A stretch of DNA of 64,000 nucleotides from Candidatus Uhrbacteria bacterium (GCA_016187515.1 JACPJN010000009.1:68891-132890); one strand, 5' to 3'; positions 46,575 to 47,873 are shown, counted from the stretch's first letter. Numbers and translations: made by a program. Notes: generated from the letters alone by a model not told the origin.

Positions 46575-47873
46575 CTAAATTCTACCCGCCACTATTGATT
46601 CCCGCAAATGCTTCATTAAATCCAAGTAAAACTTTACATTGTGAATCGTGGCCAGGCGCGCCGCAAGCGGTTCGCTCGTTTTGAACAGATGACGCAGATA
46701 GGCGCGGGTGTGATGCGTACAGGTAAAACACGAACAACAGGGATCAACCGGCTTAAAATCCGCGCGGTATTTTTCATTGGTGATGTGGAGGATTTGATAG
46801 AAATTGGATATTGGATATTGGAGATTCGATATTGTATGCGAATTTCTAATATCTAATTTCGAATATCTCCAAATATACAAATTCCCGTGCCGCGCGTTGC
46901 GCGTCGGCAGGACGCAGTCAAACATGTCCATCCCAGCCGACACTGCATGCACGATTTCTTCCGGCTGACCAAGTCCCATCAAATAGCGCGGATGATCTTC
47001 CGGAAGATGAGGCACGACCCAATCTACCACCTGCCGCTTTTGCTTCGCCGACTCCCCTACGGCCACGCCGCCAATGGCGTAGCCGTCAAAATCAAGTGCC
47101 ACGAGATCGCGGGCGGACTGCTCGCGCAAGTCGCGGTACACCGACCCTTGAACAATTCCAAAAACTAATTGCTCATAACTCCCCCTACCCCCTCTTACCT
47201 TAAGAGGGGGTCGCCGATCGCCTCCTCCCCTTAGGGTAAGGGGAGGTTGGGAGGGGTTACGCTCACGCCACTGTTTACTCCGGCTCGCCCATTCCACGGT
47301 CCTCTCCATCGCTTCCCGCGCTTGCGCTTTTGAAATACCGGCCGGCGCGCACACATCAAGGACCATGGCAATGTCCACCCCAAAATCGCGCTGGATCTCC
47401 AGCACGCGCTCGGGAGTGAACATATCTTTTCGCCCGCTTAGCCGGTCAATAAATTCCGCCCCGTCTTTTGTAATCCGCACGTCATAATCCGCTTCCCCAC
47501 CTTTCGATAATTTTGCATTTTGCATTTTTAATTTTACATTTTTATCTGCCAAACTAAAAACCTGATATCCACCCGAGTCAGTAAGTATCGGCCCATCCCA
47601 TCCCATAAACTTGTGCAGGCCGCCGGCTTTTTTAATCACCTCCATTCCCGGCCGCACAAAAAGATGATAAGTATTGGCGAGAATAATTTCTGCACCCAAT
47701 GCCTTCATCTCCTCGGCCATCAAAGTTTTCACCGCTCCGCGCGTGGCAATCGTCATAAACGCCGGTGTGGCCACCTTCCCATGCGCCGTCTTCAATTCCC
47801 CCACCCGCGCCTTGCTTTTCTTGGATGTATTCAATACACGAAAACGCTTTGACATAGTGCTATAGTATAGCAC
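46575..47873 (-). CDS. tgt: queuine tRNA-ribosyltransferase with two in-frame insertions (probable start 47855)
   Basis: [43 protein letters not shown], zinc site [18 protein letters not shown]; inserted [30 protein letters not shown] (GC element) and [19 protein letters not shown] (AT-rich element). Confidence 0.9.
46795..46870. repeat. AT-rich imperfect-palindrome insertion (GGAGATTCGATATT...GAATTTCTAATATCTAATTTCGAATATCTCC) in frame in tgt
   Basis: Local GC drops sharply; shares the ATTTCTAATTTCGAAT motif with the rsmH insertion at about 49786-49835. Confidence 0.7.
47173..47262. mobile_element. GC-rich MITE-like element (TCATAAC family) in frame in tgt
   Basis: CTCATAACTCCCCCTACCCCCTCTTACCTTAAGAGGGGG...CCTCCCCTTAGGGTAAGGGGAGGTTGGGAGGGGTTACG. 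Confidence 0.8.

Follow-up and report, generated by a model that had tools for sequence, protein, structure and literature searches.

What are the AT-rich patches that lie within two protein-coding genes of a Candidatus Uhrbacteria bacterium, and how are they maintained there without breaking the genes? The stretch of DNA that was analysed (64,000 nt, hereafter the window) has a mean GC content of 0.546, and on its minus strand it carries tgt (tRNA-guanine transglycosylase; 46575-47873, Pfam TGT 6.1e-134) and rsmH (16S rRNA m4C1402 methyltransferase; 49003-49998, Pfam Methyltransf_5 1.5e-99), the hosts of the first and second patch, respectively. An earlier note on this DNA had read both patches as in-frame, palindromic micro-insertions that share a core, and had suggested for them a foreign origin or a distinct mobilisation mechanism. 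That observation is partly confirmed and its interpretation partly supported by the present analysis; the defining feature of both patches, tandem arrays of 7-nt units, was absent from it.

Two patches built from 7-nt units

The Tgt and RsmH proteins of the window are identical to the NCBI Candidatus Uhrbacteria bacterium entries P0001 and P0121. The annotated start of tgt is probably the Met at residue 7 of the open reading frame, because the NCBI protein is 426 residues long. The Zn-site residues C380, C382, C385, and H411 of Tgt are invariant in our Tgt alignment (A1), as is D319 of the MFDCV motif, which we take to be the catalytic Asp by homology with Z. mobilis Tgt. The AT-rich islands are seen within both coding sequences: in 60-nt windows, the GC content of tgt falls to 0.27-0.28 at 46800-46889, compared with 0.55-0.65 in its flanks, and that of rsmH falls to 0.33 at 49770-49829, a dip less sharp than that of tgt. 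Translations of the two minus-strand open reading frames match the in-frame readings quoted earlier, and both frames run intact through the patches, with no stop codon or frameshift, so that translation presumably extends through the patches and yields additional loop residues.

The tgt patch is an AT-rich hairpin element of about 70 nt (46799-46868, minus strand; inverted repeat I1) that corresponds approximately to Tgt residues 336-358. Its arms (46799-46828 and 46839-46868) are 30 nt long each, 80% complementary, and separated by 10 nt. The left heptamer array of the hairpin, at 46803-46834 (Tandem Repeats Finder period 7, 4.6 copies, 84% matches; also found by our own period scan), has the plus-strand units GGATATT, GGATATT, GGAGATT, and CGATATT, and the right array, at 46841-46868 (Tandem Repeats Finder period 7, 4.0 copies; direct-repeat family D2), is the inverse of the left, with the plus-strand units AATTTCT, AATATCT, AATTTCG, and AATATCT. 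The folding energy of the plus strand is -11.9 kcal/mol for DNA (z -3.3) and -28.1 for RNA (z -5.2); for the mRNA-sense minus strand it is -14.2 for RNA (z -2.7). The rsmH patch is a direct array of five units (49790-49824, minus strand; Tandem Repeats Finder period 7, 4.6 copies), GAAATTA, GAAATTC, GCAATTC, GAAATTA, and GAAAATA on the coding strand, which encodes (T)EIRNSQFEIRKY. No hairpin was found in the rsmH patch, which folds no better than its shuffles do (z -0.02 to +1.1, DNA and RNA). The word palindromic thus suits the tgt patch and not the rsmH patch, and two module layouts are observed: a single direct array, as in rsmH, and two inverted arrays forming a hairpin, as in tgt. Unit sequence is degenerate in both patches, in which no more than two adjacent units are identical.

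Both patches use units of one type (NGAWATT/NGAAATT), and a shared core does exist in the form of the 14-mer TGCGAATTTCTAAT, the longest exact string common to both, which was read from the sequence and located by pattern search at 46837-46850 in tgt and at 49808-49821 in rsmH. The 16-mer originally quoted as that core has no exact copy; when up to 3 mismatches were allowed it gave five matches, all in the two patches, against 0.72 expected, and none of 100 shuffles reached five, these five matches overlapping one another because of the 7-nt period. A protein-database search with both open-frame peptides for dispersed copies of the tgt element returned two word-sharing candidates, neither of which scored, and so gave no sign of such copies, at a sensitivity limited by the short queries. 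Scans with the 17-mer core GAWATTAGAAATTYGCA matched at least 120 metagenome stretches and 18 viral stretches, the latter by single matches. Most of the metagenome matches have no heptamer array at the match and are chance AT-rich sequence; the few true (GAAATTA)n arrays among them lie at gene ends in unrelated contigs. These scans were thus rejected as evidence on the GAAATTN-type family.

Comparison with solved structures showed that E. coli Tgt has 3 residues where the window Tgt has residues 335-360, so that the tgt patch is a true insertion, the window protein being about 23 aa longer there, between RNARHGNLY and the I-x-I-x-N-x-K-Y strand. In an AlphaFold model of Tgt, which was built on 15 sequences (mean pLDDT 67.5) and used to locate low-confidence insert loops, the insert occupies the beta-hairpin loop between strands 331-335 and 359-363, with pLDDT <50 at residues 340-355; the other two Tgt inserts (residues 121-127 and 209-232) also have pLDDT <50. 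The right arm of the hairpin is continuous with the native Asn-Phe-Tyr codons (AATTTCTAT), and the element may therefore be partly of local origin. The rsmH array, on the other hand, overlies a helix of variable sequence that is present in all RsmH proteins after the GIDADP motif, and the window RsmH exceeds that of T. maritima there by only 3 aa and the shortest Uhrbacteria ortholog by about 7 aa. Micro-insertion is thus an apt term for the tgt patch, with 26 residues in place of 3, and as judged from these alignments it is marginal for rsmH. Alignment with conserved Tgt or RsmH sequence of other taxa, which the earlier note had named as the observation that would speak against its reading, was accordingly obtained for half of the case, the rsmH segment, which does align with a helix found in RsmH of other taxa, though one of variable sequence.

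Related modules in other genes and relatives

Period-7 arrays are hosted in the window by the genes for a Mur ligase, Tgt, RsmH, UvrC, UvrB, and a dinB-family polymerase. The 31-nt module AGTTCACAGTCGTCAGTTCACAGTTCACAGT, internal variant unit included, is identical in the window Mur ligase gene (1821-1852), window uvrC (54231-54261), and the tgt gene of the Uhrbacteria contig L083 (2329-2359), and all of its copies are read on the coding strand in one frame as SSQSSVHSSQ. A second module in the window tgt gene (47505-47543, minus strand; Tandem Repeats Finder period 7), with AAAATGN units, marks a second insertion site, 22 residues of Tgt for which E. coli-type chains show a gap or no alignment. 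Its 26-nt core AAATGTAAAATTAAAAATGCAAAATG is identical in uvrC of L001 (5758-5785) and rsmH of L226 (~3580-3610), L001 being the nearest Candidatus Uhrbacteria relative in the species-representative genome set (Tgt identity 61%). The module with this core encodes KNVKLKMQN, and in L001 uvrC it overlies the first UVR-domain helix and adds no length. Window uvrC also contains a hairpin of inverted heptamer arrays at 53468-53525 (GCATAGA... / ...CTCTAYG; DNA fold z -3.5), part of which recurs in L083 tgt, and a direct array of the AATGAAG type at 53622-53653 that encodes the native UVR-domain helix. In uvrB, an in-frame (AAGAGCA)x3 at 59615-59637 encodes KSKEQRA, and in the dinB-family polymerase gene an in-frame GAATNAT-type period-7 array at 63327-63355 encodes KHELRIMNY. 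A related AT-rich repeat of period 13 was noted in FolD (3547-3578).

The patches were claimed to be of a type distinct from the GC-rich hairpin elements of this DNA, and this is supported. The GC-rich elements are in-frame double hairpins, which we noted in tgt (~47196-47264), rsmH (~49328-49404), a clpB-like gene (41666-44353), and uvrC. Between the tgt copy and its L223 ortholog, identity is 94%, as compared with 47% at silent sites, and all four differences lie between the two hairpins. Two arrays of 9-nt units (GTAAATCAA/G, ~6 copies each; 7925-7980 and 48909-48964) are intergenic or at gene starts and are both followed by the related inverted sequence gcctgatttacttgtctcgcttgatttac, constituting another dispersed repeat family, and a period 8/24 array (ACCTAATC, ~5-7 copies) occupies 37305-37364, just downstream of the minus-strand open reading frame 37364-39244. 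Between tgt and an ftsL-like gene (47917-48528) lie two small minus-strand open reading frames of 90 aa and 104 aa; the 90-aa product resembles, by eye, a helix-turn-helix antitoxin, and the pair, which has no counterpart in the syntenic L082 locus, may be an inserted toxin-antitoxin pair.

The same Tgt loop is occupied by at least four different element families in Uhrbacteria whose Tgt proteins are 60-77% identical. The AT-rich hairpin of the window is also found in P0003/L081, while P0002 and P0008/L001 have a GC-rich element encoding ...PLRVRG, P0004/L222 and P0006/L082 have an 84-nt hairpin element of the GAATTCG type, and P0005/L083 and P0007/L224 have a 30-nt module encoding SSQSSVHSSQ. 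The 84-nt element occurs twice in L082 tgt, the second copy (93% identical) being at another Tgt site. In more distant Patescibacteria, the Tgt loop carries (AATTTCC)x4, (GAATTTC)x4, and similar arrays, and the loop ranges from 15 to 43 residues among 120 homologs, as delimited by anchors that we set. The corresponding RsmH site in orthologs holds KLKMQN-type, SSQS-type, EIRNSKLETRN-type, and GC-rich segments. Judging from these alignments, the beta-hairpin loop of Tgt and the variable helix of RsmH are sites at which length and content vary between relatives. At the Tgt loop of L009 and L016 we also noted nested elements, with an AATTTCC- or AAATTCC-type heptamer array enclosing a GC-rich hairpin; this replacement distinguishes L016 from its close relative L014.

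The two patches belong to a class of short modules (~30-85 nt) of tandem 7-nt units that is common in the sampled Patescibacteria. In a census of sampled loci under one scoring rule, the density of period-7 arrays per 100 kb was 7.8 for the window, 7.4 for Uhrbacteria loci, 10.8 for other loci of the candidate phyla radiation (CPR; 491 kb), and 1.3 for non-CPR loci (761 kb), and Markov-1 simulations of the window gave 0. Period 7 is dominant, far above the other periods in the 4-12 range, and AATTTCC is the most frequent unit. Many of the arrays, intergenic ones included, are ~30 nt long; of the 61 arrays, 38 fall within an open frame of 150 aa or more.

Conservation at the DNA level and competing explanations

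The contig L081, whose Tgt is 77% identical to that of the window, allows orthologous elements with the same boundaries and the same unit number to be compared. The two tgt elements differ at 5 of 69 nt (92.8% identity) and agree at 22 of 23 third positions (96%), as opposed to 73.0% overall and 49.9% at third positions in the rest of the gene (binomial P = 3.6e-5 for all sites and 2.7e-6 for third positions). Because four of the five differences are nonsynonymous, the peptide is not what is conserved. Third-position identity is likewise in excess in the 84-nt element pair (82% vs 51%, P = 7e-4) and in the GC-rich element pairs at Tgt site 2 (91% vs 47%, P = 8.5e-6) and site 3 (73% vs 49%, P = 0.006), and more weakly so in the SSQ module pair (P = 0.06). 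In a single-fold test, 41 of 84 differences fell on paired positions against 64% expected (P = 0.003), a noisy result in that heptamer arrays allow shifted registers, and in consensus folds, a circular test, 13 of 43 variable columns were paired, of which 11 keep the pair. These figures are suggestive of substitutions that avoid stems. The excess conservation of the DNA reflects either a constraint at the nucleic-acid level or copies much younger than the species split.

The explanation that we favour, and consider rather probable, is that the patches are heptamer modules that behave like the Rickettsia palindromic elements and are kept at permissive loops, being either constrained as DNA or RNA or recently copied. 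Such modules would spread by copy-and-paste, through non-autonomous transposition, short-patch ectopic recombination, or template switching, and selection would purge those copies that break the frame, add stops, or disturb the fold; under such purging only multiple-of-three copies at tolerant surface sites would therefore be seen. A nucleic-acid constraint could reflect recognition of the sequence or the hairpin by the copying machinery. For the GAAATTN-type family itself, copying would be argued by analogy, since no further copies were found in the 64-kb window beyond those of tgt and rsmH. A distinct mobilisation mechanism, as was suggested earlier, is possible. The patches yielded no target-site duplication, terminal signature, or associated transposase in the 64-kb window: the bases that flank the tgt element show no duplication at its boundaries in either the window or L081, and no transposase was found among ten window proteins scanned. 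In rsmH, and in uvrC at 53622-53653, the array covers a native helix and net length is almost unchanged, a hint of overwriting (short-patch conversion or template switching) in place of simple insertion. We put forward more tentatively, as a conceivable extension, an undescribed class in Patescibacteria of conserved 26-85-nt heptamer modules that move among and replace each other at loops of essential genes (tgt, rsmH, uvrC, uvrB, Mur ligase, and dinB), under cross-species selection at the nucleic-acid level exerted through dedicated copying or binding machinery to which the heptamer arrays or hairpins would be recognition targets.

Expansion in place by slippage of a native heptamer, such as the AATTTCT of the Asn-Phe-Tyr codons, would account for the contiguity of the right arm of the tgt hairpin with AATTTCTAT and for the recurrence of AATTTC-type arrays at the Tgt loop in several lineages; according to the accounts in PMC4692102 and PMC4679880, heptanucleotide repeats are over-represented in many bacteria and slippage related to the footprint of the polymerase has been put forward as the cause. 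An array prone to slippage would be expected to vary, however, whereas unit number and boundaries are the same in the window and L081 despite saturated synonymous sites, and every 7-nt step would shift the frame of an essential gene. Moreover, identical 26-31-nt modules, variant units included, are found in unrelated genes and genomes, array length recurs at ~30 nt even outside genes, and slippage leaves the inverted second array unexplained. Pure slippage is disfavoured by the stable unit number, the frameshift at each step, and the identical modules in unrelated genes, and we regard such an origin as unlikely. Improbable to a similar degree, and compatible with the favoured explanation, is that the host keeps the patches as a functional nucleic-acid element, for example an mRNA or antisense-RNA hairpin acting on translation or stability, or a set of heptamer sites for a single-strand-binding protein, with the read-through incidental. 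The third-position conservation far above background agrees with this, as do the differences that tend to avoid stems and the report that CspB binds heptamer repeats with one protein per unit (PMC4679880). Such a function is difficult to reconcile with an rsmH copy that has no structure, and the many unrelated sequences found at the same sites in relatives speak against regulation tied to the site; as mentioned, circularity limits the consensus-fold test and noise the single-fold one. No Rfam family matched either patch in a scan of 46000-50500, whose only hits were miRNA-like ones below threshold, at GC-rich hairpins and in the region of the 9-nt array and inverted repeat (48917-49005), together with two unrelated weak matches at 46138-46258.

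The foreign origin inferred in the earlier note from the opposite base composition, for instance as DNA recently acquired from a phage or plasmid, now appears very improbable. A GC content of 0.27 in a genome of 0.55 is what prompts the idea, and modules identical across species could mean horizontal spread; yet the tgt element has an ortholog in the Uhrbacteria contig L081 at the same position and with the same boundaries, between flanks that have diverged, heptamer arrays are endemic to the sampled Patescibacteria chromosomes, and the 17-mer scans gave single viral matches and metagenome matches mostly devoid of heptamer arrays. We give equally little credence to ordinary lineage-specific divergence of a loop into low-complexity peptide, with no DNA-level element involved. 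A Tgt loop of such variable length and a sequence-variable RsmH helix are as this would predict, but the strict 7-nt period cuts across codons, the tgt hairpin is significant, third positions are 96% conserved where four of five substitutions change the amino acid, and the 14-mer TGCGAATTTCTAAT is common to two unrelated genes. A phase-variable contingency locus was also considered and was rejected in view of the degenerate units, the identity of the hosts (tgt and rsmH), and the unchanged unit number in L081.

Comparison with known repeat systems

The closest parallel to the favoured explanation is provided by the Rickettsia palindromic elements, which are described in PMC10969869 as palindromic repeats located in frame in unrelated housekeeping open reading frames and read through (Ogata et al., 2000). 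In the same account these elements occupy fold-compatible positions, and several of their families coexist (PMC10969869). They are ~100-150 bp long, confined to Rickettsia, and not built of 7-nt units. Both patches resemble them in being in frame and read through without stops, and the tgt patch is palindromic as well. In contrast, the rsmH patch has no palindrome, and the modules seen here are heptamer-periodic and 30-85 nt long (70 and 35 nt for the two patches) and reside in Candidatus Uhrbacteria; it is by length and host that we set them apart. Here one family takes the place of another at a given site, and orthologous copies have changed less than silent sites have. As for dispersal, two GAAATTN-type copies are present in 64 kb, and sister heptamer families are dispersed.

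Arrays of heptanucleotides are known as the STRR of cyanobacteria (Calothrix and Nostoc), GGGAATC of Xanthomonas, and TAACTGA of Beggiatoaceae, with few copies per array and many arrays per genome, sometimes as inverted pairs, and they are reported to lie almost entirely between genes and to differ in length among closely related strains or species (PMC4692102; PMC4679880). Both patches share with them the head-to-tail 7-nt units in 4.0-4.6 copies. Unlike them, more than half of the arrays counted here lie in long open frames (38/61), and the unit number of the tgt element is stable with respect to L081. ERIC, BOX, and Coxiella QMITE1 are known to form in-frame fusions within genes (PMC10969869). 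The modules are similar to MITE-type repeats in being short, hairpin-forming, non-coding-sized, and present in several copies; they differ in that the tgt element has no target-site duplication, that the terminal inverted repeats are the heptamer arrays only, and that they are smaller than typical MITEs. REP and BIME sequences, which are extragenic imperfect palindromes with a REP-associated tyrosine transposase (RAYT), differ from the patches, which are intragenic.

A full-text literature search returned no description of heptamer-built in-frame elements in CPR bacteria, a result that does not prove their absence from the literature. What seems to be new here, judging from sequence comparison, is the occurrence in CPR bacteria of in-frame repeat elements that are Rickettsia-like and have a heptamer-array architecture. 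If this is true, many of the "CPR-specific insertions" in conserved proteins would be repeat DNA and not functional domains, which matters for annotation and protein modelling, and phylogenetic alignments should mask such patches. Like Rickettsia with its palindromic elements, CPR bacteria would then harbour short repeats within essential genes of their small genomes, and what would set them apart from the Rickettsia case is the heptamer-array build, the replacement of one family by another at a given protein loop, and conservation exceeding that of synonymous sites. They would also offer a tractable case for learning what copies or constrains 7-nt arrays, a question shared with the heptamer repeats of cyanobacteria, Xanthomonas, and Beggiatoaceae.
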